Shown: positions 1-20,578, counted from the first letter of the stretch. The stretch: DNA of 64,000 bases from an uncultured Methanosarcinaceae archaeon (GCA_963721455.1 CAVRJG010000054.1:128001-192000); one strand, 5' to 3'. Numbers and translations: made by a program. The notes: generated by a model not told the origin, from the letters alone.

Positions 1-214
1 TGGTAGTAATCTTATCGGCGTAGCTGGCGGATTCAAAGGACTTAAGCAGAATTTGAATAGAGAACACAAGGTTTCTTGTTTCACGAGAGATCTCTAAAAT
101 GACTAATATATGAAATATGGCAAACAAAACGGTACTCTGCTCGTGTATGTAAAAATATACAAAAAGTTTATTAATCAGATAGTCTATCTCTTAATTGGGT
201 AAGAGGGTTATTAA

Positions 215-460
215 GTGTTAATATTTAACAACCTCGATTTAACTCTTGATAAATTTCGCCAATTCTGCTCTTCAATATCAAATAACTAGACCTTCATCAC
301 TATGGACGAGTACGTGACTGCAGGCGATAAGCTTCTCAAGCGTTTTGTATTGATGCGCCACGACGTAGATAGATAGGTCATGGATGCGCTCAGAATCGCA
401 AATGTAGAAGAGGAATTTGGTATACGGGCAACCTACTACTTCAGAACCAGTAATACATCT
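215..460 (+). pseudogene. N-terminal fragment of polysaccharide-deacetylase-like protein (RHDVD family) with two in-frame TAG codons
   Basis: Manual translation from GTG215 (AAGAGGG upstream): DLTLDKFRQFCSSISNN*TFITMDEY...FVLMRHDVDR*VMDALRIANVEEEFGIRATYYFRT. TAG at 287-289 and 374-376; similarity ends near 455. Confidence 0.7.
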
Positions 461-695
461 TTTATCTCTTGTTGGGACAATGGGAAATTTCATTGAACTC
501 AATGAGACATATGGATTGTTATTTAATTATAATAATTCTGATAAAGCCCTGAACAAAGCGATCGAACTGGTCCAGAGTCCGAATGTCAAGAACGATTGGG
601 GGAAAAAGAGAGAACAATTGCTAAAAGACAAATTTGATGTCACTTCGTTTATAGTAAAATTTGTGGAAAAATTATGTGACCAAAGGGGAAGTACC
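461..695 (+). pseudogene. C-terminal fragment of DUF354-like protein
   Basis: SLVGTMGNFIELNETYGLLFNY...KREQLLKDKFDVTSFIVKFVE resembles DUF354 C-termini. No start of its own; runs in frame into ATG696. Confidence 0.55.
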
Positions 696-2027: not shown

Positions 2028-2029
2028 TT

Positions 2030-3217: not shown

Positions 3218-3295
3218 TTTATTTATATGACTTTTTGTTTATTTTGTAGATCTACAGTTTAAATTTCGTTTCTTTATCTTTTCAAAGGCCTAACC

Positions 3296-4585
3296 ATGTT
3301 CCATCTAAAATTCAGCAAAAATGCAAAAAATATTCAATGGTCATTCATCAGTCTTGCTACATCCTCTTTTGCACACCTGCTACTTCGAGTCGTGCTAGGT
3401 AAGGAGCTAGGACCCTCAGGACTTGGCCTGTATACTCTAGTCTTCACAATCTACTTGTTTGGTATGCAGTTTGGAACATTCGGGATTAGTGCAGCTCTGA
3501 CCAACTACATAGCCGAGTACTATGACGATCTTCCCAGGTTAAAGGAACTCGTCTCATCTGGTATTATCGGGTCCATTCTAAGCGGATCTATAATGGGGGT
3601 GTTTCTATACCTGCTTTCCAGTATTATCTCTATCCACCTTTTCCACAATCCTGAAATGGCAAACCTCTTAAGGATCACCGCATTATGTTTCCCATTTATA
3701 TCCATGCAGAAGGCTGTCATTGGAACTCTGAATGGCTTGAAGGAAATGAAACGGTATGCTATTGTTAACACTACCCAGAACTTATTGGTGATGATAGTAT
3801 CTTTTGTTCTGGTGATACTCCTGAATATGGATGTAAGGGGAGCTGTACTTGGCTTTGTTATTCCAACAATGCTGGTAGGCTTACTTTCTCTTACATTTAT
3901 AAGAAACTTTTTCATGTCACCAACAAAACTTATGATTAAGGTCTTTAAAGATATCTCAAGGTTTGGATTCTATGTTGTTCTTGCAAACTCTATCGGAATG
4001 GTCAATACACAGGTCGACAGCCTAATGATCGGTTATTTCATGAACGAGACTGAAGTGGGGTACTATGCGGTTGCGATCCTCTTTCTGCAAGCAGTCACCT
4101 TATTGCCACAGGCAGTACAGGCAGTAACAACACCCACAATTGCAGCCTACTACAGAAAAGGGGATTTTAACAATATCCAACAACTCCTCAAAAACACCAT
4201 ATTCAAGACATCGGCGGCTATATTATGTATCTCACTTATTCTTGCAATCTTCGGCAAGTTTTTGATTACCTTTTTATTTACAGGAGAGTTTCTCCCTGCT
4301 TACTTACCCATGCTTATATTATTAATTGGGTATTTCATTTATTCAGTGTATATATCTATAGGCGGCTGCCTTTCTAGCGTTGGCAAAGTTCATATTTTGT
4401 TCAAGATTGATACAATATGCGCTGGCTTGAACCTACTCTTAAACCTCATACTAATACCACGATTCGGACTCATCGGAGCTGCAAGCGCCACGTCCCTATC
4501 ATTGATTTTTACTACGTTAGTTAAGCTATCTTGTATAAGGCTATATACACAGGAAAAGCAAATCAAAATTAATGAATGCTTATGA
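3296..4585 (+). CDS. Wzx-type oligosaccharide flippase
   Basis: About 12 hydrophobic segments; LGPSGLGLY, DSLMIGYF, VGYYAVA, LIPRFGLIGAASAT. Confidence 0.9.
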   Translation: MFHLKFSKNAKNIQWSFISLATSSFAHLLLRVVLGKELGPSGLGLYTLVFTIYLFGMQFGTFGISAALTNYIAEYYDDLPRLKELVSSGIIGSILSGSIMGVFLYLLSSIISIHLFHNPEMANLLRITALCFPFISMQKAVIGTLNGLKEMKRYAIVNTTQNLLVMIVSFVLVILLNMDVRGAVLGFVIPTMLVGLLSLTFIRNFFMSPTKLMIKVFKDISRFGFYVVLANSIGMVNTQVDSLMIGYFMNETEVGYYAVAILFLQAVTLLPQAVQAVTTPTIAAYYRKGDFNNIQQLLKNTIFKTSAAILCISLILAIFGKFLITFLFTGEFLPAYLPMLILLIGYFIYSVYISIGGCLSSVGKVHILFKIDTICAGLNLLLNLILIPRFGLIGAASATSLSLIFTTLVKLSCIRLYTQEKQIKINECL

Positions 4586-4644
4586 TATTATGAAGTAATA
4601 TTAAAGGGTAAAATTTGATTAATTGTACTGAATGTTTAATTAAA

Positions 4645-4911
4645 GAGCTTATCCTAAAACTCAAAATTTGCTCTTGAACCTTGTATTTCGAATAATCGAT
4701 CAAGTTCCTGATCATGAACATAAATTCGGTGTTAATAGCTTAGGACTACGCGGTTGAACTTAGAAATCAATGAGCTTGTTTCAAAACTACCTTCAACTTC
4801 TCTGAACCAATATTTCATAAGATCAATCAAGACTAAAGAACTAAATGGAATAAAGGTTTGCAATTAAAGGCATGGAGAGCCGGAGTTTTGAACTAGGCTC
4901 TGGAATAACTC
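4645..4911. mobile_element. MITE family A (GAGCTYATCCYAAAAC ends), interrupted by a family B MITE
   Basis: Start GAGCTTATCCTAAAACTCAAAATTTGC matches the reverse complement of the right end of 26835-26963. Residual TGGAATAACTC follows the inserted element. Confidence 0.55.
4772..4900. mobile_element. MITE family B, about 130 bp (IS5-like GAGC..TTTCAAAA TIRs)
   Basis: GAGCTTGTTTCAAAA...TTTTGAACTAGGCTC; homologous along its length to the reverse complement of 7863-7993. Confidence 0.75.
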
Positions 4912-5046
4912 ATCATAAAGTATTTGGAAGATATAGAAGTTGTTAAATCACTAAATTCCTCAAAGAACTAAAGTCGATCTATGCCAGAGCCTCATCGACG
5001 CATTGTAGTATAATGCTACTGTTGAACCATTATAGGGGAACTTCCA

Positions 5047-6883
5047 TTGAGAGATGCCATAAAGATCCTGATATTACTGCTGTTTGTAGGGGGTTTATGT
5101 ATGCTGTTCTCATACATTGCAATCCTTTATAACCCCATATCGACAGGTGATTTGTTTGTATCGCATGAAGCAGCTTACGATGTCGGTATTTCAAAACAAT
5201 CTGGAAATATTGTTGCAGAAGATTATAATGGAAAAACAATAGCATCAGGGATCTCCAATCTTGACGATGAATCTGTTATTCAAAAAGCATTTGATTCAAT
5301 TACTGATGAGGGTATAATCTATTTTGATAACAGTAAATATAGTATATCAAGACCTATAACATCAATTGGTAAAAATATTGAAATAAAAGGAAATGATACA
5401 GAGTTCAATATTAATACAGGAAGCAGTGAACCTGGATTTTCTTTTAGTGGTGAATTAATAAAAATTACCCCTGTTTTGTATGATGCAAATAAAGGAAATA
5501 ATGTAGTAAGTTTAAAAGACGCTTCAGGTACAAGTGACGGCGATTTAATAAAAATTTATAATGATATGTTGTGGTGTCCAGATGATTACCCAGCCCACAA
5601 AACTGGAGAAATGTACACAGTCGAAAGTGTGTCCCGGAAACAATTTAAAATTAAATTCTAACCTCCTAAGGGATTATACTACTAAATTAAATTCAGAAGC
5701 ACGAATTTATAGGCCTGTAACCATAAAAATTGATGGTTGTACATTTCTAGGTACGGGTTCAAAAGAAGAAGTAAGGGGTGTAAAGTTAGAGTTTTGCAAA
5801 AATTCAAAAATATCAAATTGTTATTTTGACAACAATGGGATGGCTGCAATATCTCTCTACACATGTTACGGTGTTGACGTTAGTAAAAATATAATATTGA
5901 ATTCAAATATGCCAGGTTATGGATATGGTGTTTCAATTGCTAATGCTTGCACAGATATAACTATTCAAGATAATGATATCCAAACATGTAGACACTGCAT
6001 AACATCTGGTCGTTCGGACAATTATGGGGAAAATAGGGATATATACATATCAAACAATACTTTACATAACGGTACAAACGCCGTCATAGATTCGCATCAG
6101 TCAACAATAAATTACAAAGTTACGAACAATAAAATATATTGCGGCTCACAGTGTGCATTCCTTGATGGCACTGCGTATTCCATATTTGCAAATAATGAAG
6201 TTTATGAAGCCTACGGTGAAAACAGTAATAGTGCTATTTTTAAAAGGGGTCATATTGCTGATTCCAGGAAAATAATAACTGGAAATTATGTAGAATGTGC
6301 CTCTCTAATTTCTGAAAGTAATGGAAATATAAGTGAATTAACCGTCTCAAATAACAATGTTATAGGTACGAAGACAGCTGACGTAATATTACTTGATGAC
6401 ATGAATATTAAAAAAGTTGTTATCACTAACAATTCAGTAACTTCCGGAAGATCAGGGATACACATTACTGGAGGTAACATAACAAACATTAGTATATCAG
6501 ACAACACTATTGAAAACGTACAAAGAACAGGAATCTTGATTGATACCTCTGACACCATTTTAAATCTCTCCAACAACACAATAAACAATGCAAGTAGAGA
6601 AGAAACAGGTTATAGTGCCATTGATCTGTATAATGTAAAATATGCAAGTATCCATGGTAATAAAATATCCGATAGCTACGGTCAAACAAAGTACGGAGTA
6701 TGTGAAGACCCAGACTGTGATTATAATTCCATCTATAGTAATTGGATAGAAAATATGAACTCAGGCGTCATTTATATTCAGGGAACTCACTCGACAGAAA
6801 AAAACAATGGTGTCAGAAATAGCCAATTCCCCGCTTCCTCAGCTATCGATCAAAAGGTTACCGATGGTGGGATCAGAATCTGA
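5047..6883 (+). pseudogene. Membrane-anchored right-handed beta-helix (pectin-lyase fold) protein, split by a +1 frameshift
   Basis: N-terminal TM segment and Asn/Ile-rich PbH1-like repeats. ORFs 5047-5661 and 5561-6883 join (611 aa) if one C of 5633-5635 is removed. Confidence 0.75.
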
Positions 6884-6905
6884 TCCTTATAAGAGGTTCC
6901 TTTAG

Positions 6906-7096
6906 TTCTATCGATCCGTTGGAAATGTGACCGCTTGCACAATCAAGCACTATATTTAAGGAGTCGCAGAGGACACCGAAAGCAGAGTTTCAATCGCGTG
7001 GATTAAGGAAATCTGGGCAAAGGAAACCCGGTGATTTCTGAGAAACCAGCGTGTGGCCCGGAGCCTACTCTCTCCGTCAGGGTGAGATGGTCGCAC
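6906..7096 (+). mobile_element. IS200-type tnpA C-terminal remnant and right end
   Basis: FYRSVGNVTACTIKHYI (Y1 transposase catalytic-Tyr helix), followed by the end-like GGGTGAGATGGTCGCAC. Confidence 0.65.
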
Positions 7097-7314
7097 GCAA
7101 TTTGATTACTCCAATAGTTTCTGCAAATCTATGCGAATCATATTCTGCTCCAGGTCGAATAACGATTCTTAATAGAAGACCCTCCGAAGTTACAGCTGCA
7201 TGAATCTTTATTCCGTTTCTCTTTTGAATCTATTATACTCGACACTTTCTCCCCTTTTTGTTTCTACAAAACTGCTATCTACTGCAACAATGCCAGGGGA
7301 GATCTGTCCTCGCT

Positions 7315-7564
7315 CCGACCTTCCGCAGATGTCTTCAAGAAAATAACATCTCTCTTGCTATCGTTTTTGGATGTTTGCTCTAAAATTTGCAATTATTATC
7401 TCAACTGAAGCTTCCTGAAATATAAGTTAGAAGCTTTCAATGAAGATACAAGATTGAAAAGTGTAGGACATTTCAAAAAAACATGTTTGAATAAGCAGGG
7501 CAATTTTCAGAAAAACGATAGCAGAAAAAATTGTGAAAATTGAACGGACATCTGCGGAAGTCAG
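7315..7564. mobile_element. MITE family C, 250 bp, with 6-bp target duplication
   Basis: TIRs CCGACCTTCCGCAGATGTC / GACATCTGCGGAAGTCAG. CTCGCT duplicated at 7309-7314 and 7565-7570. Interrupts the IS5 transposase. Confidence 0.9.
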
Positions 7565-7862
7565 CTCGCTGATAAGAATCATCTTTGGGATAATTTACAA
7601 TCATATCCCAAATACCTTCTTCAGATCACCGTTTTAAATGTCTCCATAAAGTTACGTAAGACCCGTATTTGTTGGGCATATCTCTCCATTGACAACCTGT
7701 GACAATAACATAAAGAATACCGTTGATAATCTGACGATCATTTACTCTCTTTCTCCCATCCTCAGGTTGGGGAGGAAGGTGTGAGCGAATATAAGCCCAT
7801 TGAGCATCACTAAGTTCTTCTAAATGTATGTTATTTCCCTATCTAAAGTAGAATCAAATGAT

Positions 7863-7993
7863 GAGCTGGTTTCAAAATTCCGACTATTCATGTTTTTGAC
7901 CAAAAGCAGGTGTTCAATTTAGTTCTAATGATCTTGATTATCTTCTCAGAAATATTGGTTCAGAGGGATTGGAGGTATTTTTGAAACAAGCTT
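7863..7993. mobile_element. MITE family B, second copy (opposite orientation)
   Basis: GAGCTGGTTTCAAAA...TTTTGAAACAAGCTT; internal homology to 4772-4900. Confidence 0.75.
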
Positions 7994-8299
7994 GAGATAT
8001 AACTTTGAAACAGGCTCAGTGAGTAAAGTTATTATAAAAGTAACTCCTTTGATGTATAAAATAATTTGATATACATAGTTTGTTTAATTGCTTATAATCA
8101 TTTACTAAAAACATAAGGGAAGGTATTGCTTCATTAGTTGGTTGATATTTCATCTTAGAATACACTTTGTTCACTTGCACCTGTTGTATAAGCTTACTTA
8201 TGTACGGGTACACAACTCGGAAAATGGAAGCAGATGCGAGTATGCGAATTGTTTTGAAAAATATCAACTTATTATTGAGGGACCACTTAAGGGGAACAT

Positions 8300-10267
8300 T
8301 TGATGTTATTTAAAGAAATAGCACCAATAATCATATTATTGACTTTAATCATTTCGGCGCCAATTGCTGTAAAAATTAAACGTTCTAACCTCTTAACTAT
8401 TGATGGGATGTTTGCAATTTTTGGAACGATATTGGGATTACTAATATCCTTCTTGAACTTGATATACAGTAATAATTACCTTATCTCATTGGGGCCTCTC
8501 CTTACAATTGCATCCCTTTTGTACTTGAGATTTAGAACTAAATTATTGGCAGACGACATAGACCTAAACCTTAACCTTAGTAATCGGGCACTAAAGATTA
8601 TTCAAATTATTTACTGGATTTGCATTTTAGTAGCATTGATAAGTTATTATCAGGCAGAGCCATACTATCGCCCTATAATATTCTTTGTCAGCGTATCAAT
8701 GGCTGTAGGATCTTTAGGGCTAGAGATTTTGTCACGTACCTATGAAGAAGATGTCCTACTCTATACTTTATTTTCTAAGATACTCATATTATCCCTTATC
8801 CTGAGATTAAGTGCTTATTTTATATCCCCCTACCCTGTTGGTATAGATCCGTGGAAACATGCCGACTTGATAAAAGACATTTCCATCTACGGAACCAGTT
8901 ATTTGCCCAAACATTCATATTACAGCAATTATCCTTTGATGCATATCTATGCATCCATTTTAAGTCTCCTGGGAAACCTGACCACAAAAGGTGCAATGTC
9001 TATCATAGGAGTGGTGCTTACAGTTAGTACTATTTTTGTATATACATTTGTCAAAAAAATTACGAATAGTGTTCAACTTGCATTATTCTCAATGTTACTT
9101 ATAAATTTTTCAGACTTCCATATTCAATGGAGCATTCAATTACTTGCTATGAGTTTTGGAATTGCCATCTATACGATGATTGTCTATCTTTTAATTGAGC
9201 AAAAGGAGAAAATAAACACTCTATTCAAAATATTCTCAATGTTAGCCATATTCGTTATCACATGGACCCACACAATATCAACATTTATTTATATTGTCTC
9301 ACTGATCTCATTATGTGCTGGATCTTATATATATGAACGTATGTATGCCACTAAAAACAACTCCGCCAGATTGAGAGCAGATCTTTTTCTTTGTATATTT
9401 TCTATACTAATATTGATCTATCACTGGTCGGATCCAAGATATCCCTTTCTTGAAGGAACAGTAAATGGACTGGGAAATTCATTTTTATCTGAGGCAAAAT
9501 TCTTAGGGCGGAGCGCGATTCCGGGTGCAGGAGACTCCTTGTCCTCGATTCTTGACATTCTTGGGTTCCTCATTTTCATTTTTTTTGGGGTTATTGGAAG
9601 CCTTCACAGCTTATCAAAAGGACATCAAACTAGAACTAAAGTGTCCTTAATCTTCATGCTTGTTGTACTATTCTCAATCTTTTTTACCTTTCCTGTAATG
9701 GGAATCAGAAATATCGTGCCATTCAGATGGCCAGCGTTTATATACACGACTTTTGTATTGTTTTCTGGGATTGGAATCTTCAAAATAACCAGCACTATCA
9801 AAGGCAGACTTTTCAAAGCTGTTTTTATCTCTATATTACTTATAATATTTTCATTTTTTATGATAACGAATTCTTTTGTAGATGTGGATTCTCCTATTTA
9901 TGGAAAAAATCTCACTCACAAAATGATCTGGACTGAATCTGAAGTCGAAATGTGTAGAAATATTAACAATTCTTATGACGATCTTATTCTAACAGATGCC
10001 ATGACAGTCGATAATATATTCCAAACATATTTATCTAGAGGTAAAGTAGCAGAGTATGCAGTTACTCCAGCAGGAACTTTAAATTGGGAGCGTATGGGAG
10101 ACAAAATGTTAATTTGGAGAAAAATCAGTTTAGATAGGCCTATAAAAGTTCAATATTCTCCTAAAATGTTACTTGGACCTTTTTTTAAATACAACCTCGA
10201 CAACAAATGTCATGTGATATATGACAGTGGATATGCGAAGGCGTACTTAGGCATTAACAGAATATAA
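8300..10267 (+). CDS. Polytopic membrane protein of glycosylation locus (GT-C or polymerase-like)
   Basis: 655 aa with many TM helices; loop motifs GIDPWKH and YYSNYPLMH; soluble C-terminal domain. Confidence 0.75.
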   Translation: MMLFKEIAPIIILLTLIISAPIAVKIKRSNLLTIDGMFAIFGTILGLLISFLNLIYSNNYLISLGPLLTIASLLYLRFRTKLLADDIDLNLNLSNRALKIIQIIYWICILVALISYYQAEPYYRPIIFFVSVSMAVGSLGLEILSRTYEEDVLLYTLFSKILILSLILRLSAYFISPYPVGIDPWKHADLIKDISIYGTSYLPKHSYYSNYPLMHIYASILSLLGNLTTKGAMSIIGVVLTVSTIFVYTFVKKITNSVQLALFSMLLINFSDFHIQWSIQLLAMSFGIAIYTMIVYLLIEQKEKINTLFKIFSMLAIFVITWTHTISTFIYIVSLISLCAGSYIYERMYATKNNSARLRADLFLCIFSILILIYHWSDPRYPFLEGTVNGLGNSFLSEAKFLGRSAIPGAGDSLSSILDILGFLIFIFFGVIGSLHSLSKGHQTRTKVSLIFMLVVLFSIFFTFPVMGIRNIVPFRWPAFIYTTFVLFSGIGIFKITSTIKGRLFKAVFISILLIIFSFFMITNSFVDVDSPIYGKNLTHKMIWTESEVEMCRNINNSYDDLILTDAMTVDNIFQTYLSRGKVAEYAVTPAGTLNWERMGDKMLIWRKISLDRPIKVQYSPKMLLGPFFKYNLDNKCHVIYDSGYAKAYLGINRI

Positions 10268-10297
10268 ATTTTAACAGACATACCCTGGGAATAAGAC

Positions 10298-10450
10298 CTT
10301 ACTTTCGGCAGATAACTTGTTTTTCCTGATGTCTTTAGTGATAGCGTTTTGTTGGAAAACACATTACCCCCATACTAAACATTATTGCAAAAATAGTTTT
10401 GTTGTTTACATGTCTCATGAGATTCGAACCATATGTTAACCGCTCAGGAC
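10298..10450. mobile_element. Possible IS end remnant related to the family C TIR
   Basis: CTTACTTTCGGCAGATAAC resembles CTGACTTCCGCAGATGTC; no partner end seen. Confidence 0.35.
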
Positions 10451-11105: not shown

Positions 11106-11867
11106 TTTCGGACACCTCAGTTAATGATAATTGAATTACATTGATCCAGCATTATATTACTCACTATTCTTCTACGTTATAAAATGTGCGACCTCCGAGC
11201 AAGGGCGCTAAGAAACGAATACCCTATATCCTTATCGTTTATATATTTTAGGATTGCTTTTTTGAATTATTTATATAATGTATGAATTTAATGTAACTAT
11301 TCAGGTATCAAAAAGTGACCCTATTGATCTCGATTAAGGTAATTCAGAGAACCCAAATTATTTGTCCGCAAAGGACTTAAAAACATTATCGTTTGACAGC
11401 AGTTAAATAAAATAGATTCATATAAATTACACGGAGAAAATCTGATAAATTGAGGTTATTAATCACGATTAATAGTGCTCGAATAGTTACAATTTAATGT
11501 TAATACAAGGTTTTTCAGCATGCTGTTAACGGTGATGAATAATCTACGTTTTCAACGGATTAAAATTTCCCGCTCTCAATGTTTAATAAAGTTTGAGGAT
11601 TGTGAACCGTGTTGAAAAAGGAGGAATTGTTTATATAGGATTTAAGTTCACAACACTTGAGCATAAACGACAATGCATATCGCAGGGAAAAGCGGGGGTG
11701 CCACCATTGGGCTGTATTCCAGCAACTCCAGAGTCATTTTCCTACCTCCCTCAAGCCCGGGTAAGGGGCAGGAGTTCTTCTCGATAATATCCTGCAGGGC
11801 TTCATTCAGTAAATTCTTTAGTATATGGAGAATATGAAATTTATATACGGAAATATAGTAGATATAC

Positions 11868-12551
11868 GTGAACTGTATGTGCAATAAGAATTTAACAATA
11901 CCTTTCCCCATTTCTCTTGAACATATTCCTTACCTGTGGGAACGGAGTGATGTTCTTATTCTTCTTGTTGACCTGGATAATTATGATACATTTAATACGG
12001 ACTGCCTCGGCAGGATAGAAATGGAACACCTTGAGGGTTTACAGACCAGTTATTTCAAGAAAAGATACACCGTCTCCAGAACGGTTCTGAAACATATCCT
12101 GTGCAGTATCCTTAACGAACGATCCACCTCCGATATATCCACATATAAAGACGGCCATGGGAGAGTCTGCATCCATAACCACAATGAACTGTACATATGT
12201 ATATCATATACTGAAAGCATTGCAGCCTTTGCAATATCAAAGATTGAGGTCGGTATTGATATCGAGCTTGGAAGAACACTGGCTCTTAAAAATACTCTAA
12301 AATACCTGCGTGAAAAACCTTCATTCACGGACGAACCTTTAAGTAAAACCGATCTTTTAAAAACATGGACTTTGAAAGAAGCCTATTATAAGTTTTCCAA
12401 TAAAAACATGCTTCCTAATTTAAATAAAGACCTGGATCTCAGCAGTGTCAGCCATTCGAGTTATGTTTTAGACAATAAATACATCTTTTCTGTCATTACT
12501 CGCTCGGATTCCCATATTATCAATATAAATCGCCTTCAGAAGATCGACTGA
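11868..12551 (+). CDS. Sfp-type 4'-phosphopantetheinyl transferase
   Basis: VGIDIE and WTLKEAYYK motifs; lies next to an ACP gene. Confidence 0.85.
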   Translation: MNCMCNKNLTIPFPISLEHIPYLWERSDVLILLVDLDNYDTFNTDCLGRIEMEHLEGLQTSYFKKRYTVSRTVLKHILCSILNERSTSDISTYKDGHGRVCIHNHNELYICISYTESIAAFAISKIEVGIDIELGRTLALKNTLKYLREKPSFTDEPLSKTDLLKTWTLKEAYYKFSNKNMLPNLNKDLDLSSVSHSSYVLDNKYIFSVITRSDSHIININRLQKID

Positions 12552-12920
12552 AACTGGGACTGAATATGTTCGATAAAATCTAAGGTTTAAAATGGCGTCT
12601 GAAGTGGAAATATAAACGATTGTAATAATAAATACCCAAAAGGAACATCGACCACTTAAGTAGTTCAGGCAACTTTTGAAAGCTGTCACATTAAATCCTG
12701 TGAATATCCGGCGAAACCTCATGTATTTATTTTTCTGTATATTGCAATTTTTTGCATCCTGTAATATCTTTTCTCGACCTTATTTGTGTGCGGGTAATTA
12801 AATCGGTCACACTATTTCTTCCGTGAGGTAGCTAAATTTGTATCATCCGAGTGCACTAAATTGATTTTACTCAAAATTTTCCATTTTTGTCAGAACGTTT
12901 TTGTTAGCGGAAAAGTTTCT

Positions 12921-12935
12921 CAAATTATTTATATA
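12921..12935 (+). promoter_or_regulatory. Putative TATA box for the ACP operon
   Basis: TTTATATA at 12928-12935, about 105 nt before ATG13042. Confidence 0.45.
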
Positions 12936-13041
12936 GTTGTATTACGTATTTAGCAGTGGGGATTTCACGTTATTATGGACAGTGATGTGTGTTACACACA
13001 ATCGATGGTCCACTAAACGAAAACAAAGGGGATAACAATAC

Positions 13042-13287
13042 ATGGAACAGATAAAGAATGATATAGTCGATTATTTGAAAGCTAATTCTTTTATGGACAA
13101 TAACACCAACTTGAAAGATAATGATTCTCTCACTCAGGACGGCATTATAGATTCCATTGGTCTGCTTGAACTTATGGACTATATCTGTGATAAATATTCT
13201 ATTGTGATTCCTGAAGATATGCTGACACCGGAAAATTTTGACTCGTTGCAGGGAATTACTAATATGATAACCAAACTGGCGAAGTGA
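13042..13287 (+). CDS. Acyl/aminoacyl carrier protein
   Basis: 81 aa, acidic; GIIDSIGLLEL (Ser38 attachment site) and LTPENFDS; AGGGGG RBS. Confidence 0.92.
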   Translation: MEQIKNDIVDYLKANSFMDNNTNLKDNDSLTQDGIIDSIGLLELMDYICDKYSIVIPEDMLTPENFDSLQGITNMITKLAK

Positions 13288-14771
13288 ATAATATGCGAAT
13301 TGATGCGTATATCACAGAATACGCCAGAAATGCTCCTCAAAACATTGCCCTGGAAGAGGGTAAAAGTTCGATTACCTATAGCTGCCTTGATAAGGATATA
13401 AATGCCATTGCTTTACCTTTGATGGATTTTAAGCATTGCAGATTTGCAATACTTGCAGAGTCAGGCATACAGTATATAAAGATCCTCATGGCGGTTTATC
13501 GGTCAGTTAATATCGCAATCCCTCTGCCAATAGAATTTCCTAAATTCAGTCTTGAAAGAATCCTTGATGCTGCCCATATCAATAATATCATTACAACCGA
13601 TACGCAGTATTCAAGATTCGGGGACGATTTTTTTGAGCATTTTGGAACCGTAGTCGTTGTTTCCGGTGATACTTCCGTGGAGATTCTGCATAAGAAGATC
13701 GGAACCGAGTCAAATAATCCGGAACTGCGGCTGGTTCTGTACACTTCCGGCACAACAGGCACTCCAAAAGGGGTAATGTTAAGCGACAGAAACCTGGTAG
13801 CAAACGCAACGTCAATAATAGAGGTACTTGGCATAACCTCCAGAGATAAAGCAGCACTGATAATATCACCACACCACGCTTTTGGAAATTCCATAATTAA
13901 TTCCCACCTGATGGCCGGCGGCTCCATCAGAATTGGAAACATGAATTTTATAGACTCGGTTTTCAACCTTATAAGAGCAGGCGTATCCATATTCTATGGA
14001 GTGCCCAGTACTTACCGTATACTCCTCAGGTATCCAGATAGATTCAAAAAAGCTTTTACTAACGTCAGAACCGCTGCGTCCGCAGGCGGAGGTATGGATC
14101 GGGAAATTGTAAAAGATATTAGAGAGTTTACCACCAATATGGAAATTCTGCCAATGTATGGGCAGACTGAAGCCACAGCAAGGCTTGCCTACCTGCCAGC
14201 AGAAGACGTGGATAAATTCATTGACACTATAGGAAAAGCGATTCCAGGGGTCATGCTGGATGTCTTCGATTCCGAGTCCAGGTCAGTAGAACCTAATATA
14301 ACTGGCGAACTGGTTGCCAGAGGGGATAACATTCTGTTAGGTTATCTGGACGATGAAATTGCCACCGAGAAGAGGATTATAAACGGGTGGCTGCATACCG
14401 GGGATCTCGCACAGAAATTGCCAAATGGGTATATCAGACTGCTGGGACGCAAGGATGATCTTATTAAAATCGGTGATCATCGAGTGAACCCGAGAGAAAT
14501 TGAGAGAAATATAGAAGAAAATAACGAGGTCTCGAAGGTTTTTGTTGTACCTGTAGACCATGAGCTTATGGGAACCGCGATTAGCCTCCTGATCATACCT
14601 GCAGAAGGAACTAAAATCGAAAATTTGTTTGCATTCTGCCGGAAGAGCCTGCCAGGTTACCTCTGCCCAAGAGAAATACTATTCATCGATCATCTGCCCT
14701 TGAGCGAGAACGGGAAAATATCCAATCGATCTATCATAGAGGAATATAAACATGTCAAAGCTAGTATGTAA
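13284..14771 (+). CDS. AMP-binding adenylation enzyme (acyl-/aminoacyl-ACP ligase-like)
   Basis: YTSGTTGTPKG, YGQTE, TGD, GRKDDLIK, NGK motifs; GTGA overlap with ACP. Confidence 0.9.
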   Translation: MNNMRIDAYITEYARNAPQNIALEEGKSSITYSCLDKDINAIALPLMDFKHCRFAILAESGIQYIKILMAVYRSVNIAIPLPIEFPKFSLERILDAAHINNIITTDTQYSRFGDDFFEHFGTVVVVSGDTSVEILHKKIGTESNNPELRLVLYTSGTTGTPKGVMLSDRNLVANATSIIEVLGITSRDKAALIISPHHAFGNSIINSHLMAGGSIRIGNMNFIDSVFNLIRAGVSIFYGVPSTYRILLRYPDRFKKAFTNVRTAASAGGGMDREIVKDIREFTTNMEILPMYGQTEATARLAYLPAEDVDKFIDTIGKAIPGVMLDVFDSESRSVEPNITGELVARGDNILLGYLDDEIATEKRIINGWLHTGDLAQKLPNGYIRLLGRKDDLIKIGDHRVNPREIERNIEENNEVSKVFVVPVDHELMGTAISLLIIPAEGTKIENLFAFCRKSLPGYLCPREILFIDHLPLSENGKISNRSIIEEYKHVKASM

Positions 14772-15792
14772 AAAGTGTGTTCTGGATTCGGACATTCCAG
14801 GTATACAGATTAATGAGGAAAGTGGTCTCTGCCATTTCTGCGAGACATATGCTCCTCTTTCTTCACAGGAAAAGAACGAGTATCTGACCAAAATTGAAGA
14901 ACTTTTTGAACAATACAGGGGAAAGGGTAAGTACGACGTTATTTATGCACTTTCCGGTGGAAAAGACTCATCATACACGCTTTACAAACTCAAAAAAGAC
15001 TATCCTTTCCTGAAGGTGCTGGCTGTCCAGTTCGATAACGGGTTCACTTCCGAAGGCGCAATAAAAAACGCAAAAAAGATGTGCAAGATCACAGGCTCCG
15101 ATTATTACCAGCTGACAATGGAAACGGAAATACTTTACGATACATTCAGAAAAGCAGCCGAATCGTACGATGCATTTCCCAAGTTTGCTAAATACCGGGC
15201 AAGTGACATCTGTAATGTCTGTATCACTATCATCAAACAGAAACTGATCGAACAGGCAATTATTCAGAAAGCACCTTTTATTGTATTTGCTTTCACAGCC
15301 GGCCAGTCCCCAAATCCCATTATTAACCTTTCGCCCAATTTTATACAGTGGTCCAGGAACCTATTTAAAAAACAGCTTGAAAAAATAGACGTCGAAGATA
15401 AAGATGAGATATTCCTCCTAAAAAGTAAGGTTATTGAAAATATGGGGGAAACTGCTCTAAGTATCCTGCATCCACTGTGTTTATGGGAGTATAGCGAAGA
15501 TAAAGTGCTGGAGGCACTTCTGGAAATCGGATGGGAACAACCTGGTATCAATGACAGTAATTCAACCAATTGTACATTGAACTCTTTTGCCTGCTATAAT
15601 CACCTGGAAAAATATGGATTCCACCCATATGCCTTTGATACAGCAGGGCTTGTCCGAAGCGGAGAAATGTCGAGGGAAGAAGGATTCGAAAAAATCAACC
15701 AGGAACTGTCACAGCCATTGATAGAAGAAGCTGCACAGAAGCTTAAATTGAATGTAACGAATTCTAAAAAAATGGCAACTGTTCGGATTTGA
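14752..15792 (+). CDS. PP-loop ATP pyrophosphatase, N-acetyl-sugar amidotransferase-like
   Basis: N-terminal CKKCVL...CHFC, LSGGKDS PP-loop, CNVC, STNC, VRSGEMSREE. Confidence 0.75.
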   Translation: MSKLVCKKCVLDSDIPGIQINEESGLCHFCETYAPLSSQEKNEYLTKIEELFEQYRGKGKYDVIYALSGGKDSSYTLYKLKKDYPFLKVLAVQFDNGFTSEGAIKNAKKMCKITGSDYYQLTMETEILYDTFRKAAESYDAFPKFAKYRASDICNVCITIIKQKLIEQAIIQKAPFIVFAFTAGQSPNPIINLSPNFIQWSRNLFKKQLEKIDVEDKDEIFLLKSKVIENMGETALSILHPLCLWEYSEDKVLEALLEIGWEQPGINDSNSTNCTLNSFACYNHLEKYGFHPYAFDTAGLVRSGEMSREEGFEKINQELSQPLIEEAAQKLKLNVTNSKKMATVRI

Positions 15793-15828
15793 TCCTTATA
15801 TAATCAGTCTAATCATGGGGGAAATACT

Positions 15829-16821
15829 ATGCAGGTAGTGAAAGAACTGAATGTGCCGATAATGGAAGAACTGAACAGAGACATCGAAAATTTAGCCTTG
15901 AATATCAGGGGTTTTATCAAAAATCAGATTGTAGGTTTTAAGAAAAAAGGAGCAGTTTTAGGTGTTTCAGGTGGGATTGATTCAGCTGTAGCTCTTACCC
16001 TTTGCGTACAGGAGCTTGGAAAAGAAAACGTGTACGGAATCCTCCTGCCTGAAAAAGAATCGGCTCCTTCCAGTAAAACTCTGGGTGCAGAAATCTGCGA
16101 AAGCCTGGGTGTGGAATATGAGGAGGTTCCCATATCTCCAATCCTGGAATCACTTAACATTTACGAGAAGAAAGAACAGATCATAAAAAGAACCTGCCCA
16201 GAATATGATGCCAGAATACACAAAACGTCACTGGTACTGCCTGATTTCCTTGACCAGGGACTTTTGAATGTTCCTTCTATTCGGCTGATAAAAGATGGGG
16301 AGGCGGTCGCAAAGTACAGGTTGAAGGCAAATGACTATCTGGAACTGATCGGGTTGCAGGGGGTCAAGCAGCGGTCCAGAATGGTAATTCAGTATATGTA
16401 CGCTGAAAAGATGAATTACGTGGTGTGCGGGACAACCAACAAGACCGAACTGATCCTCGGGCAGTTCGTAAAATATGGGGACGGAGGTGTAGATCTCGAA
16501 CCTCTGGCTGACTGTTATAAGACCCAGATCTATGCTCTGGGTAAATACTTGCATATCAATGAAGAGATTATGACGCGCCCTCCAAGTGCTGATACATGGA
16601 GCCATTATACTACTGATGAAGAGTTTTACTGGCGCATGCCCATTCAAACAATGGATCAGTTGCTATATTCTCAGGAACATCATTTACCCTTGCAGGTAAT
16701 TGAAAAGAACACCGGGCTTTCCAGAGACAAGGTCGAAAAAGCTCAAAAACACATTAATAGAATAAGAAATACCACCGAATACGTTCGGGCTGCTCCTCCC
16801 GTTTACTATCTTAACAGATAA
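15829..16821 (+). CDS. nadE: NH3-dependent NAD+ synthetase-like protein
   Basis: GVSGGIDS, KQRSRM, GTTNKTE, GQFVKYGDG, YKTQIY, PPSAD. Confidence 0.85.
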   Translation: MQVVKELNVPIMEELNRDIENLALNIRGFIKNQIVGFKKKGAVLGVSGGIDSAVALTLCVQELGKENVYGILLPEKESAPSSKTLGAEICESLGVEYEEVPISPILESLNIYEKKEQIIKRTCPEYDARIHKTSLVLPDFLDQGLLNVPSIRLIKDGEAVAKYRLKANDYLELIGLQGVKQRSRMVIQYMYAEKMNYVVCGTTNKTELILGQFVKYGDGGVDLEPLADCYKTQIYALGKYLHINEEIMTRPPSADTWSHYTTDEEFYWRMPIQTMDQLLYSQEHHLPLQVIEKNTGLSRDKVEKAQKHINRIRNTTEYVRAAPPVYYLNR

Positions 16822-16845
16822 GCTGGAGAAAGATAAATGCCTGGG

Positions 16846-16897
16846 GGCAAAGTCGTAATAATCCCAAACCTCAGATTGGAGGAGTTACGGCTTTGCC
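16846..16897. other. Intergenic stem-loop
   Basis: GGCAAAGTCGTAA ... TTACGGCTTTGCC inverted repeat after the nadE-like gene. Confidence 0.45.
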
Positions 16898-16999
16898 TGT
16901 AGCAAAAAATCTGATCCTAAACTGCATAGATTACTGCGGTAGATAGGCGGCAGATGATGTAATTATAATTAACATAAATTTATTCAATGTATAAAATGT

Positions 17000-18139
17000 G
17001 TGATTATGGACACCAGGGTTTCTATTGTTCGCTGTAGCGATTATTCAAATGCAAAAGACGCGATAAGAGAGTCGCTTAACCTTATAGGCGGCCTTGAGAA
17101 GATTATAGCTCCTGGCAACCGCGTATTGCTCAAACCCAATGTACTTGCTATTCGACCGCCAGAGGATGCTGTCACAACCCATCCGGCAGTAGTAGCAGCA
17201 ATGTGTGAACTGGTTTCAGAGGCGGGCGGCATTCCAATTATAGGCGACGGCTCCGGCATTGTAAAACCCGGATCTACTACCACTTCGCAGGCATTTAAAG
17301 CATCCGGAATTGAGAATGCTGCTTCCGGTTGCGGGGCAGAACTCATTAATTTTGAGACCTCAGGTTTTGTTGAGGTTGATGTTCCAGGCGCCAGGCAGTT
17401 CTCGCGGCTTCATATCTCAAGAGCAGTACTTGAGGCAGATGTAATAATTTCGCTTCCAAAGCTCAAGACCCATGAACTCACGCTATATACAGGTGCTGTC
17501 AAAAATTTCTTTGGCACCGTGCCTCAGAAAAACCGAAAACAAGCTCACTTCCTGGAAGATCGTGGCCGTTTCGGAGAAGCAGTTGTTGATATATATTCTG
17601 TCGTCAAACCTCAGCTCGCTGTTATGGACGGTGTGGTCGGAATGGAAGGGAATGGCCCGGCCAACGGTACACCTGTTTTTGCAGGCGTGATTATGGCAAG
17701 TTATGACTGCGTAGCCCTGGATATCGTGGCCTCTGAGCTCATAGGAATTGATCCTTTGAAGGTTCCTACAAATAAAGCTGCACTCTCAAGGGGGTTCGGA
17801 ACCGAACATCCTGAGATTACAGGGGTGCCTCTGGACGAGGTAAAGGTCAGATTCAAAAGGCCAGAAGGTGGAATCACTGCCTTCGTACCGTCTTTTCTTA
17901 TGAGGGTCCTTCGAAGGCAGTTAACTGTAAAACCCGTTATCAACACCTCAAGCTGTGCGCTTTGCAAAGCATGTGTTTTGAACTGTTCGGCACATGCCAT
18001 TGAAGAAGCAGGTAGTGCACTCAAAATCAACGAGGAAAAATGCATCCAGTGTTATTGTTGCCGAGAACTTTGCCCTAACGATGCTGTAGAAATTAAAAAA
18101 TCACTGCTTCTAAAGCTTATAACCAGAAGTAAAAGCTAA
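17000..18139 (+). CDS. DUF362 domain plus 2x[4Fe-4S] ferredoxin-domain protein
   Basis: LLKPN, TTHP, PKLKTH, GMEGNGP; CALCKACVLNC and CIQCYCCRELCP. Confidence 0.88.
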   Translation: MIMDTRVSIVRCSDYSNAKDAIRESLNLIGGLEKIIAPGNRVLLKPNVLAIRPPEDAVTTHPAVVAAMCELVSEAGGIPIIGDGSGIVKPGSTTTSQAFKASGIENAASGCGAELINFETSGFVEVDVPGARQFSRLHISRAVLEADVIISLPKLKTHELTLYTGAVKNFFGTVPQKNRKQAHFLEDRGRFGEAVVDIYSVVKPQLAVMDGVVGMEGNGPANGTPVFAGVIMASYDCVALDIVASELIGIDPLKVPTNKAALSRGFGTEHPEITGVPLDEVKVRFKRPEGGITAFVPSFLMRVLRRQLTVKPVINTSSCALCKACVLNCSAHAIEEAGSALKINEEKCIQCYCCRELCPNDAVEIKKSLLLKLITRSKS

Positions 18140-18294
18140 CAGAAGAGTTGTCTGGAAGTTCGTTTATTCAGCATGCTGGAAATCAGTGTATTCAGCATAT
18201 TATCAATGTCAAAATTAATTAAGCACGAACTGTAGAAATTTATTTATTAGTTAAAGCACAATTAAAAAGTAGTACAAAATAATTTAACAGTAAA

Positions 18295-18843
18295 ATGGGG
18301 GGTATTAGCATGACTACTGTAGTGTCTACCAGAGATCAAGTAACCTTTCGTGAAGTTGCGGACCATTACCACAGTAATATATTTCTGTTTGGCATGAAAT
18401 ATTTAAAAAACTGGATTCTGGAACGGCTTGCTTCAAGCGCTCCTGTCCCGTCCTGGAGAGCTAAATTACACAGGATGCGGGGTGTAAATCTCGGAAAGAA
18501 TGTATATGTTGGCTATGACGTAATTTTTGATCGGATTCACCCTGAATTAATTACAGTAGGGGATTATGCTGAAATCGGCGATCGGTGCATACTATCTGCA
18601 CATTCGAGAGGGAGTTTGACTACAAGACAGGCATATCCGAGAACTACGGATCCCATAAAAATCGGACGCGGAGCTCTTGTGAATTCGGGATGTATAATCA
18701 CACAGGGTGTCGAAATCGGGGAAAACTCAATAATAGGCATCGGATCCGTAGTTACTCGCGATATCTCTCCAAATAGTCTTGCTCTGGGCTACCCTGCCAG
18801 AGTTGTTAAAAAGCTTGAAGGTGTAGGCGAGCTTCAAACCTGA
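18295..18843 (+). CDS. Hexapeptide-repeat (LbH) acyltransferase
   Basis: IGRGALVNSGCIITQGVEIGENSIIGIGSVVTRD...GYPARVVK. Confidence 0.88.
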   Translation: MGGISMTTVVSTRDQVTFREVADHYHSNIFLFGMKYLKNWILERLASSAPVPSWRAKLHRMRGVNLGKNVYVGYDVIFDRIHPELITVGDYAEIGDRCILSAHSRGSLTTRQAYPRTTDPIKIGRGALVNSGCIITQGVEIGENSIIGIGSVVTRDISPNSLALGYPARVVKKLEGVGELQT

Positions 18844-18860
18844 TTTTAACACCTTCATGA

Positions 18861-19445
18861 TTATTTTTCGGATTTATATTTGAATTCAAAGCCAAATTGA
18901 TTCAAGGCAAACAATGCCATCATTATTATACAGCAAATAAAAAAAACCGATACAAAAGATACTATCAGGTAGTGAAATAGCCCGGTTTCCTGAAAACTTA
19001 TATCCATCATTGAAAATACACTGATATCTTTATCGTATAATGGATAAAGGTACTCGCAGCCGCCTTCACTAATATCATCCAGCAATAGGTGTGAAAGGAG
19101 AGCAGCCTCTGCAAAAAGGCCAAGGTATATTGCCCTGCCAGGCTCCCTGAATATAGCATATCCTGTAATTGTCCCGAACAGGATTGCAGGAAAACTGAAT
19201 AGAATAGAATGTGTTGGAACCGGGCCAATAGAGCAATGTTCCATAGTACCGTTTACGAATAAATTGTAAACAATCATGATATCCGGGAATAAAGCACATA
19301 AACTGCCTACGGACAGCAGCAATAGTAAAGGCATTGAACTCTTGAAAGAGAGTTCCCTCCGAAAAAGTAATCTGAGAGCAGCATAGACTGCTACTGCGTT
19401 GATACACAACACAAAGAATAATACATGTACAACCGGATAGGGCAT
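18861..19445 (-). CDS. YdjM-like membrane metal-dependent hydrolase
   Basis: H, FPD, THS, SHLLLD and LYP motifs in a TM protein. Confidence 0.8.
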   Translation of the reverse strand: MPYPVVHVLFFVLCINAVAVYAALRLLFRRELSFKSSMPLLLLLSVGSLCALFPDIMIVYNLFVNGTMEHCSIGPVPTHSILFSFPAILFGTITGYAIFREPGRAIYLGLFAEAALLSHLLLDDISEGGCEYLYPLYDKDISVFSMMDISFQETGLFHYLIVSFVSVFFICCIIMMALFALNQFGFEFKYKSEK

Positions 19446-19578: not shown

Positions 19579-20578
19579 CTGACCTTACACAGATGTCTTC
19601 AAAAAATAACCTTTTTCATGCTATCGTTTTCAGGTAATAACCTAAAAATCTGAAATCATTATCTCGATTCTTACCCAAAAAAACAGAAGTGAAAACTCGT
19701 TAGTTGAATCACAAAGTCTAAAGATGTGAGAGATTTAAGAGATACAGATTACAATAATTCAATATGATTTTGACAAAAAAGATGTCATTAAAAATTGTGA
19801 AAATTGAAAAGACCTGTCGGGTAAGTAGGGAGGATTACTCCTCCTTTCTCCCCTAGGAACCGTACTTGAAAGTTTCCCTTCATACGGCTCGAGTGTTTTC
19901 AAACCCTTTCTGTATCAGGCACCAGTTATTTGCATAACTGATTTTGTGTTCCGGATAACAGCCCACTAACATAATTGTCTGTAAGCCTCTCACCTATTGG
20001 TGTCGTTGAGTATCTTACATTTGTAGGTTTGTTTCCATTCACACAAGAAAACACCATCAGTAAGTCTGCATCCTTTCGGATTGAGGCAAAGTTTGAACCT
20101 CTATCCAATCCATTACAGATTGGCATTCGCTTTTTACTGAATCCTCTACCCTCAATGCCATCGTTATCCCTCGCGGGAGTCCTACCCATAATGGGAGCAT
20201 TTAGGGCTTACCAAGTTCCATACTACGAATAATGTGAATACCTTAGAAGCCATCTATAAACCGAGAATCATTTGTCCATTTGCCATAATGTCCGCAGACC
20301 CATTACAGCCTGATTCTGTACCTTTTGGTTAAGCGTATCAGCCTGCTTTCGCTTATTCCACTTCACGATTCTTACGATGGTTCACTTTATGTTCTTCATA
20401 GTATTCGTATCCTAACCGATTACCAAAGTCAGGTTCCTTGATTTCTCGATAGTGTCCTGTGAGCTTCACACACAAATGTTACCATTTATGCATGTCACAG
20501 TAGGATTACCTCAAATGGAAGAGGTAGCGAATGGTGCAATTCATAGTATAGCTTCTTGTCGCACCTGCGGAAAGTGGG
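19579..20578. mobile_element. MITE family C carrying a group II intron in its right TIR
   Basis: Starts CTGACCTTACACAGATGTC and is homologous to 7315-7564. ATTAAA duplicated at 19573-19578 and 20579-20584. 251 bp once the intron is removed. Confidence 0.88.
19816..20564 (-). ncRNA. ORF-less group II intron (749 nt)
   Basis: 5' GTGCGACAAG; domain V GAGCCGTATGAAGGGAAACTTTCAAGTACGGTTC; domain VI ending ACCCGAC; no RT ORF. Confidence 0.93.

Follow-up and report, generated by a model that had tools for sequence, protein, structure and literature searches.

A 64,000-nucleotide (nt) stretch of DNA from an uncultured Methanosarcinaceae archaeon (GCA_963721455.1 CAVRJG010000054.1:128001-192000; hereafter the window, whose whole-length numbering is used throughout) carries co-oriented genes for a 4'-phosphopantetheinyl transferase (PPTase), an acyl carrier protein (ACP), an adenylating ligase, a seven-cysteine PP-loop enzyme and a NadE-like enzyme. 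These five core genes are inherited together, and the set is an archaeal variant of a cassette (ACP, ligase, AsnB-like, NadE-like) that is widespread in bacteria and recurs in exopolysaccharide (EPS) and surface-glycan loci. We read the locus as a self-contained, non-canonical thiotemplate cassette whose tailored acyl group would go to a cell-surface glycan, an interpretation to which we assign a probability of roughly 50%. The following features make up the locus:

11840..11847, plus strand: possible archaeal TATA box TTTATATA, 21 nt upstream of the PPTase start codon, sequence read directly
11868..12551, plus strand: Sfp-type 4'-phosphopantetheinyl transferase, 227 amino acids (aa), called from PF01648, the AusB-type model and motifs
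12928..12935, plus strand: possible TATA box TTTATATA, 107 nt upstream of the ACP start codon, sequence read directly
13042..13287, plus strand: stand-alone acyl carrier protein, 81 aa, with predicted phosphopantetheine attachment at Ser38, called from ACP models and D37/S38 conservation
13284..14771, plus strand: ANL-family adenylating ligase, 495 aa, predicted ACP loader, called from PF00501 and PF13193
14752..15792, plus strand: seven-cysteine PP-loop ATP pyrophosphatase, 346 aa, with zinc ribbon C6/C9/C27/C30, SGGKDS at 68-73 and triad C154/C157/C274
15829..16821, plus strand: NadE-like PP-loop amidoligase of the PRK00876 branch, 330 aa, called from PF02540 and PRK00876
17000..18139, plus strand: DUF362 protein with a C-terminal 2x[4Fe-4S] ferredoxin domain, accessory, PF04015 at 211 bits
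18295..18843, plus strand: left-handed beta-helix (LbH, WcaF-like) acyl/acetyltransferase, accessory, candidate transferase, called from Pfam/NCBIfam profile matches
18861..19445, minus strand: YdjM-family membrane protein, convergent, of doubtful membership, PF04307 at 43.5 bits

The ACP and ligase genes share 4 nt at the ACP stop codon, and the PP-loop gene overlaps the ligase gene by 20 nt, followed by spacers of 36 nt before the NadE-like gene, 178 nt before the DUF362/ferredoxin gene and 155 nt before the LbH gene; the PPTase gene sits 490 nt upstream of the ACP gene. Both TATA-like boxes were called by the archaeal TATA consensus, and the copy upstream of the ACP gene suggests a separate promoter for the ACP operon. 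An earlier note on this stretch had proposed eight genes, and all eight were recovered in place and orientation, with the domain content ascribed to them. Its description of a carrier system devoid of ketosynthase (KS), condensation and thioesterase domains held as well: Pfam and NCBIfam profile scans detected none of the three in any cluster open reading frame (ORF), and a profile search of the window's whole genome, which is 98.5% complete and defines the scope of all genome-wide searches below, revealed no condensation domain. KS-type matches in this genome are weak and thiolase-like (~28 bits).

Two locus scans with the PP-loop protein yielded 84 loci, 70 of them Methanosarcinaceae-type. 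ACP, ligase, PP-loop and NadE-like genes occur together in 58 of these 70; ten of the twelve exceptions are cut by a contig end, one (L013) has a partial NadE-like gene and one (L028) lacks it. Since gene order is kept in 58 of 70 loci, the arrangement reflects more than a chance neighbourhood. Across the same 70 loci, the PPTase gene was found in 45, DUF362 in 47, LbH in 50, YdjM in 31 and a short-chain dehydrogenase/reductase (SDR) gene right after the NadE-like gene in 25. The synteny check therefore bore out the previously proposed set for PPTase, ACP, ligase, PP-loop and NadE-like genes, which form the conserved unit, and narrowed it for the remainder, which is lineage-specific: DUF362/ferredoxin and LbH are accessory, and YdjM is merely a frequent neighbour, including at some loci of a second genomic context. 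In this second context, found in some Methanosarcina, the block from ACP to LbH stands without PPTase and DUF2551 genes (for example L036, with a PPTase-linked copy, L061, in the same genome). The phyletic pattern was taken from 121 genomes sampled evenly across the order: PP-loop, PPTase and NadE-like genes were each present in 19 genomes, and these were the identical 19, with the PPTase located away from the operon in two of them (G291, G295). One Methanosarcina genome that is 99% complete (G275) lacks all three.

Beyond this family, Methanomicrobiales loci (L087-L091, and L118 of Methanoregula) hold all five core genes, rearranged and at ~50% identity, and in loci of Thermodesulfatator, SEEP-SRB2-like, Myxococcota-labelled and Bacteriovoracaceae origin the ACP, ligase and PP-loop genes are kept. 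As a specific target, the methanochondroitin named in the earlier note is unlikely: it is a trait of Methanosarcina, while Methanococcoides, Methanolobus, Methanomethylovorans and Methanomicrobiales have the core as well. Side-chain synthesis for methanophenazine, coenzyme B or F430 was dropped as a function, as the cassette is missing in 102 of the 121 genomes yet present in bacteria. DUF362 has four further paralogue loci in the window's genome. In Methanomethylovorans, Methanolobus and Methanococcoides, the SDR (FabG-like, 246-252 aa; L075:10103-10843, L072:10007-10747, L029:10122-10880) comes straight after the NadE-like gene, at a position where the window has spacer only. A 2.5 kb contig binned as Bacteroidales (L031) carries PP-loop and NadE-like genes 77-82% identical to those of Methanosarcina, which is probably a binning error.

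Sfp-type PPTases are ~230 aa long, consist of two halves and carry G-x-D and W/F-x-x-KE-x-x-K motifs. The 227-aa translation in the window has this length and displays VGIDIE and WTLKEAYYK. It scored 24.1 bits against PF01648 in hmmscan (cut-off 25) and 25.0 bits, marked over the cut-off, in the genome search; its best NCBIfam match is the Sfp-type AusB model (E 1.7e-11), far below the equivalog cut-off. It is the sole PF01648 match in the genome, in support of a dedicated PPTase. The ACP reached 17.3 bits against PF00550, under the cut-off of 20.8, and was matched by nine ACP models, among them the AmcB-type ACP model at 45.8 bits. D37 and S38, its putative carrier D-S motif, are invariant in 15 of 15 orthologues, and no other credible PP-binding match exists in the genome. 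With a single PPTase and a single credible ACP, both appear to serve the cassette alone. As a side observation, the PPTase homologues of two sister-genus (g5) genomes contain one in-frame TAG each (G045:C1:1149408-1150052, G055:C6:100575-101225); this archaeal family reads TAG as pyrrolysine in some genes. PF01648 has no match in M. acetivorans, the species from which one PP-loop homologue (P0042) is nevertheless named.

The ligase combines an AMP-binding domain (PF00501, 175 bits) with AMP-binding_C (PF13193, 44 bits), as expected for the ANL family, and scored 214 bits against the exosortase-A-associated ligase model TIGR03098, under the cut-off of that model. Its best match in the PDB is the adenylation (A) domain of LgrA, and its best structural relatives include oxalyl- and malonyl-CoA synthetases and A domains of non-ribosomal peptide synthetases (NRPSs). 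In A domains, Asp235 binds the alpha-amino group and is kept by enzymes that activate alpha-amino acids. Alignment to LgrA places a Phe at the equivalent position, which, together with the resemblance to NRPS A domains and oxalyl-/malonyl-CoA synthetases, leads us to expect a small acid without an alpha-amino group as substrate. By these residues and profiles, the ligase is assigned to the ANL family and predicted not to be an alpha-amino-acid A domain.

The PP-loop protein sets the archaeal cassette apart from most bacterial ones. It aligns over its full length to the WbuX/N-acetyl sugar amidotransferase (NASAT) model TIGR03573 but scored 125.5 bits against a curated cut-off of 203.2, placing it outside that family; likewise, ten of ten family representatives scanned remained under the cut-off (70-147 bits). 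An exhaustive search with the protein returned 2860 representatives at E up to 0.001, 68 of them at E up to 1e-30. We aligned 36 family members with seven fused or embedded domains and with 12 archaeal proteins that exceed the WbuX cut-off. All aligned rows have the four-Cys zinc ribbon and SGGxDS, with C6, C9, C27 and C30 as well as the PP-loop S68-S73 aligning with those of 12/12 true WbuX proteins; a tetracysteine zinc motif of N-acetyl sugar amidotransferases has been described (PMC10607449). A second set of cysteines, the triad C154, C157 and C274, is found in 36/36 family members and 7/7 fused or NRPS-embedded forms, but in 0/12 WbuX proteins, and D72 and S73 are likewise invariant in the 36 family members. 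Nine long relatives were scanned: two are ligase-PP-loop (A-domain) fusions, three are NRPS condensation-adenylation-thiolation (C-A-T) modules whose A domain encloses the PP-loop domain, one is an A-T module of the same design and one is a C-A-T-thioesterase protein with the domain at its end. In the window, the PP-loop gene overlaps the ligase gene, with the ACP gene close by, which, like the fused and embedded relatives, would fit an enzyme that acts on carrier-bound substrates. These features indicate that the enzyme is probably not an ordinary sugar amidotransferase.

The structure of the PP-loop protein was modelled with confidence by AlphaFold2 (predicted local distance difference test, pLDDT, 94.7). 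Its best fold match is NASAT 8wex (Foldseek E 3.5e-13, TM 0.65), followed by the [4Fe-4S] sulfur inserters NcsA, TtuA and LarE and then the thioguanine enzyme YcfA. ESM Atlas neighbours bear generic PP-loop and NASAT cluster names only. The closthioamide enzyme CtaC is reported to be a [4Fe-4S] AANH protein that thioamidates carrier-bound substrates only, with D77, S78, C154, C157 and C284 as essential residues (PMC6772006). By position and published descriptions, not by alignment, these match D72, S73, C154, C157 and C274 in the window's protein, and across the family the respective positions range over 71-79, 152-160 and 275-288. At the residue level the PP-loop Asp/Ser pair and three cysteines of a CtaC-type enzyme are hence in place, with the [4Fe-4S] cluster itself being predicted. 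Owing to this TtuA/CtaC-like triad, sulfur insertion would be as likely as amidation. For TtuA and NcsA, a sub-region PDB search aligned the PP-loop part only. PF01171 (TilS/TtuA/NcsA-type) matches in M. acetivorans but not, at E up to 0.001, in the window's genome; a candidate comparator on C46 is LarE-like. A quick maximum-likelihood tree put the 12 WbuX rows on one side and gathered the archaeal rows in one clade (SH-aLRT 95) nested among bacterial seven-cysteine proteins, next to an A-fused form; two of these archaeal rows are labelled so without a source name. As the tree carries no root test, we claim no direction of transfer.

The NadE-like protein ties the archaeal genes to the bacterial cassette. 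It scored 182.7 bits against PF02540 and 486 bits against PRK00876 (NF002048, 'NAD(+) synthase'; cut-off 313). A canonical NadE is encoded elsewhere in the genome (contig C56, PF02540 at 300.6 bits), so the cluster copy is not the sole or housekeeping NadE. We scanned loci with a NadE-like alignment and split them at 33% identity. Among the 35 non-Methanosarcinaceae loci at 33% identity or above, 26 have an ACP or ligase homologue (20 have both), 18 an AsnB-like gene, five the seven-cysteine gene and four an AT3 membrane acyltransferase gene after the NadE-like gene. The 39 loci below 33%, representing ordinary NadE, gave one weak ligase match and no AsnB. In many bacterial phyla, the PRK00876 branch is thus found together with ACP and ligase genes, typically in the order ACP, ligase, AsnB-like, NadE-like, and the exosortase-A-associated ligase model is the best or second-best match of the bacterial cassette ligases. 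In the same line, 117 plasmid records, 76 of them from Sinorhizobium, hold asnB, ACP, adenylate-forming enzyme and nadE genes beside glycosyltransferases, and the window's NadE-like protein is 36% identical to the product of a Shinella plasmid gene over 95% of its length. Adjacent genes for an ACP, an ANL ligase and a PRK00876-type NadE-like enzyme, the signature of the bacterial cassette, are all present in the window. Profile scans found no AsnB-like gene in the window cluster, nor in the archaeal loci L117 and L118; the seven-cysteine gene stands in its place.

Finally, docking of the ACP onto the NadE-like enzyme was predicted with a score of 0.44, compared with 0.00 for the best control; runs agreed in at least 76% of contacts, and partner pLDDT was at least 79. 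In calibration, 58 of 80 solved complexes passed the docking mark, as did 2 of 110 mismatched pairs; of these, only 7 of the solved complexes but both mismatches had scores of 0.60 or below. The prediction lends weak support to such a contact.

Contigs from four metatranscriptome runs (two studies) cover the stretch from ACP to NadE-like gene and the LbH gene at 95-99+% identity, spanning the ligase/PP-loop junction (14721-15006) and the NadE-like/DUF362 spacer (16823-17098). They start only after 12985, a weak hint of a separate ACP-operon promoter; the RNA-library contigs of these runs leave the PPTase gene and the greater part of the DUF362 gene uncovered. Searching Rfam for a riboswitch or leader RNA ahead of the operon gave nothing credible, the sole in-cluster match being a snoRNA model (21.9 bits, E 0.79). 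A bacterial-type scan, uninformative for an archaeon, counted 28 promoter-like sites against 21.8 expected and eight terminator-like sites against 6.3.

Glycan or EPS genes flank the cassette in eight of ten annotated contexts, which were chosen by us and not at random, and the surface-glycan genes that the earlier note saw beside the cassette thus recur in archaea and bacteria. In the window they form a low-GC (34-37%) surface-glycan island at 1-10300, with glycan genes 5-10 kb upstream of the cassette:

2030-3217: family 4 glycosyltransferase (GT4)
3296-4585: Wzx-like flippase
5561-6883: beta-helix/NosD protein
8300-10267: 655-aa multi-pass membrane protein, no Pfam or NCBIfam match

The corresponding genes in other contexts are:

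Methanolobus L072: UDP-GlcNAc 2-epimerase, UDP-sugar dehydrogenase
Methanococcoides L029: GFO/IDH/MocA oxidoreductase, UDP-sugar dehydrogenase
Methanomicrobiaceae L087: GT2, flippase, GT1
L098: epimerase, PEP-CTERM-type deacetylase, sulfate activation genes
L094: UDP-glucose dehydrogenase, ManC
L100: exosortase directly after the ligase; NeuD-like LbH, deacetylase, XrtA-type GT
Shinella plasmid: cassette beside glycosyltransferase/EPS genes

The 8 kb flanks of relatives stop short of the positions that the GT4 and flippase genes occupy in the window. The 655-aa membrane protein, the only island gene checkable in these flanks, was found in 1 of 37 loci, with one further partial match. On the other side of the cassette, pieces of a group II intron lie between the YdjM and radical-SAM genes (19816-19892 and 20377-20500, minus strand), matching domain 5/6 (RF00029, 63.5 bits) and D1-D4 (RF02012, 42.9 bits, truncated by the end of the searched range); no large ORF lies between the two pieces.

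From the observed modular logic and co-inheritance, we infer the following chemistry. The PPTase would convert apo-ACP into holo-ACP, and the ligase would adenylate a small carboxylic acid without an alpha-amino group and load it onto the ACP as a thioester. The NadE-like enzyme may then adenylate a free carboxylate of the tethered group, yielding a carboxamide, and the seven-cysteine enzyme could adenylate an amide carbonyl, swapping oxygen for sulfur (thioamide) or NH (amidine). This last activity is suggested by the NASAT fold and by the TtuA/CtaC-like Cys triad, which probably holds a [4Fe-4S] cluster. The presence of an AsnB-like enzyme in the corresponding place of most bacterial cassettes fits nitrogen chemistry, and the Cys triad and nearest folds fit sulfur chemistry. 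The finished acyl group would be handed to a cell-surface glycan, perhaps by LbH in Methanosarcina or by another transferase; this transfer is the weakest part of the model. Lineage-specific redox tailoring would come from DUF362/ferredoxin and, in sister genera, from the SDR. The logic of the earlier note largely holds under this scheme, and its interpretation is partly supported: activation and amidation of a small acid fits the two PP-loop enzymes, with the qualification that insertion of sulfur is just as probable.

Three other explanations were weighed. The same enzymes could make a small diffusible metabolite that is released, such as a thioamide-bearing acid or a short closthioamide-like compound, with the glycan vicinity being a common landing site for accessory genes. 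PP-loop relatives indeed sit in NRPS modules, thiotemplated natural-product genes are reported to adjoin ~75% of CtaC homologues (PMC6772006), the core lacks a membrane acyltransferase or glycosyltransferase, and many Methanosarcina loci have no glycan genes in their 8 kb flanks. However, no release or coupling enzyme of the thioesterase, condensation, ATP-grasp or transglutaminase type is present, and EPS genes, an exosortase or an AT3 acyltransferase adjoin the cassette in several phyla, which makes a diffusible product a possible but rather unlikely outcome.

We judge it improbable that the ligase is a fatty-acid acyl-ACP synthetase and the cassette a remnant bacterial-type ACP lipid function feeding lipid or protein acylation. 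The ACP does score 33.7 bits against the ornithine-lipid ACP model, yet the weak KS matches mentioned above are all that the genome offers by way of fatty-acid synthase partners, the ligase has oxalyl-/malonyl-CoA synthetases and NRPS A domains among its best structural relatives, and two amidating or thiolating PP-loop enzymes have no place in such a pathway. The rhizobial homologue of the ligase, moreover, is reported not to substitute for FadD on oleate (PMC7232532). Slightly more remote still is the view that the genes are mere neighbours, that is an ordinary nucleotide-sugar amidotransferase and a spare NAD synthetase next to an unrelated ACP and ligase. It would account for the full-length fit of the PP-loop protein to the WbuX model at 125 bits, for NASAT 8wex as its best fold and for the NadE-like protein passing the curated PRK00876 'NAD(+) synthase' cut-off, but it is at odds with a WbuX score under the 203-bit cut-off and a Cys triad absent from 12/12 true WbuX proteins. 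Overlapping genes, an identical phyletic pattern over 121 genomes, PP-loop relatives fused to A domains and a PRK00876 branch that travels with ACP and ligase genes speak against it too, and profile scans found no HisH/HisF-like ammonia supplier among the cluster genes.

Several points weigh against the glycan-directed cassette that we favour. Substrates, products and the acceptor are predictions from sequence and context, homology to CtaC rests on residue positions and published descriptions, and the Cys triad could instead bind zinc or be purely structural. The predicted ACP/NadE-like complex contributes weak support, and the RNA-library contigs, which can hold DNA or derive from relatives at 95-99% identity, give a hint of expression only. 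The core has no obvious transferase, and LbH is missing from many Methanolobus and Methanococcoides loci. The glycan contexts were hand-picked (n=10); in two of them, L036 and L016 from the second Methanosarcina context, the annotated neighbours are not glycan genes, and most Methanosarcina loci are flanked by housekeeping-like genes (DUF2551, radical SAM, cyclase, Ham1). Furthermore, we know of no thioamide- or amidine-bearing acyl groups of such kind on glycans. In the fully specified version, a thioamide- or amidine-bearing acyl group would be made on the ACP by Methanosarcinaceae and some Methanomicrobiales and then attached to their surface glycan; we put this forward as a tentative proposal that may well prove wrong.

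If true, it would constitute the first functional thiotemplated pathway in Archaea, the first archaeal non-ribosomal thioamide and a chemically undescribed type of glycan modification, and the name 'NAD synthase' would be wrong for the PRK00876 branch across many phyla. That this curated 'NAD(+) synthase' subfamily accompanies ACP and ligase genes matters for annotation across many bacterial phyla, and a seven-cysteine, carrier-linked branch is separated here from the sugar amidotransferases. Archaea are commonly described as having neither ACP nor ACP synthase (PMC3533463; 2024 bioRxiv preprint). One PPTase and one ACP kept solely for the cassette would give that archaeal oddity a concrete job. 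Given the close PP-loop homologue named from M. acetivorans (P0042) and the genetic tractability of this species, the product could be within reach of knockout and mass spectrometry.

Among known systems, one of the closest counterparts is the rhizobial asnB-ACP(SMb20651)-ligase(SMb20650)-nadE operon of S. meliloti pSymB, a cassette that recurs in many bacterial phyla. It shares the ACP, an exosortase-type ANL ligase and a PRK00876 NadE-like enzyme in one operon, and the bacterial cassette often lies beside glycosyltransferase or EPS genes. It differs in that most bacterial cassettes employ a glutamine-dependent AsnB-like amidotransferase where the archaeal form has the seven-cysteine PP-loop enzyme, and in that rhizobia use AcpS, whereas the archaeal form brings its own Sfp-type PPTase. 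For the S. meliloti pair, SMb20650 is reported to be co-transcribed with SMb20651 and to acylate holo-ACP in E. coli (PMC7232532). The earlier note had known of no biochemical characterisation, a statement that this loading of an ACP by a homologous pair qualifies. The closthioamide proteins CtaC, CtaE and CtaI of Ruminiclostridium cellulolyticum likewise combine a stand-alone carrier, an acetyl-CoA-synthetase-like loader and an AANH/PP-loop enzyme, which is reported to have a three-Cys [4Fe-4S] motif and to work only on carrier-bound substrates (PMC6772006, PMC7183216); the critical CtaC residues are at matching positions when compared by published numbering. Unlike that system, the archaeal cassette has no ATP-grasp, papain-like ligase or transglutaminase, lies in a glycan-gene context instead of an antibiotic cluster and has no peptide backbone as a target for thioamidation, except where an amide is already part of the loaded acid.

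NASAT (WbuX, LpNASAT PDB 8wex, TIGR03573) resembles the seven-cysteine enzyme in its N-terminal CxxC...CxxC zinc ribbon, SGGxDS PP-loop, overall fold and proposed chemistry of amide-oxygen adenylation followed by substitution. In contrast to NASAT, the archaeal enzyme lies under the family cut-off, has the extra invariant Cys triad and A-domain-fused relatives, and is partnered by an ACP and a ligase rather than by HisH/HisF-like subunits. D-alanylation of teichoic acid by DltA/DltC, which was part of the reasoning in the earlier note, also uses an adenylating enzyme to load a small acid on a dedicated carrier for a surface polymer, without KS or condensation domains. The DltA and DltC models match weakly, however (DltA at 135.7 bits, cut-off 559.85), no DltB (MBOAT) or DltD is found among the cluster ORFs, two PP-loop tailoring enzymes are added and the ligase lacks the amino-acid-binding Asp, placing the cassette outside the Dlt system. 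A second precedent is the Vibrio cholerae O1 antigen, where the ACP-plus-ligase genes rfbK-O serve the tetronate N-acyl group. Literature searches found no paper on the archaeal cassette, and supplements of the CtaC papers may list archaeal homologues. Together, these comparisons identify a carrier-protein cassette with a NadE paralogue as already known from rhizobia, and as new an archaeal variant with its own PPTase and a seven-cysteine enzyme replacing AsnB.

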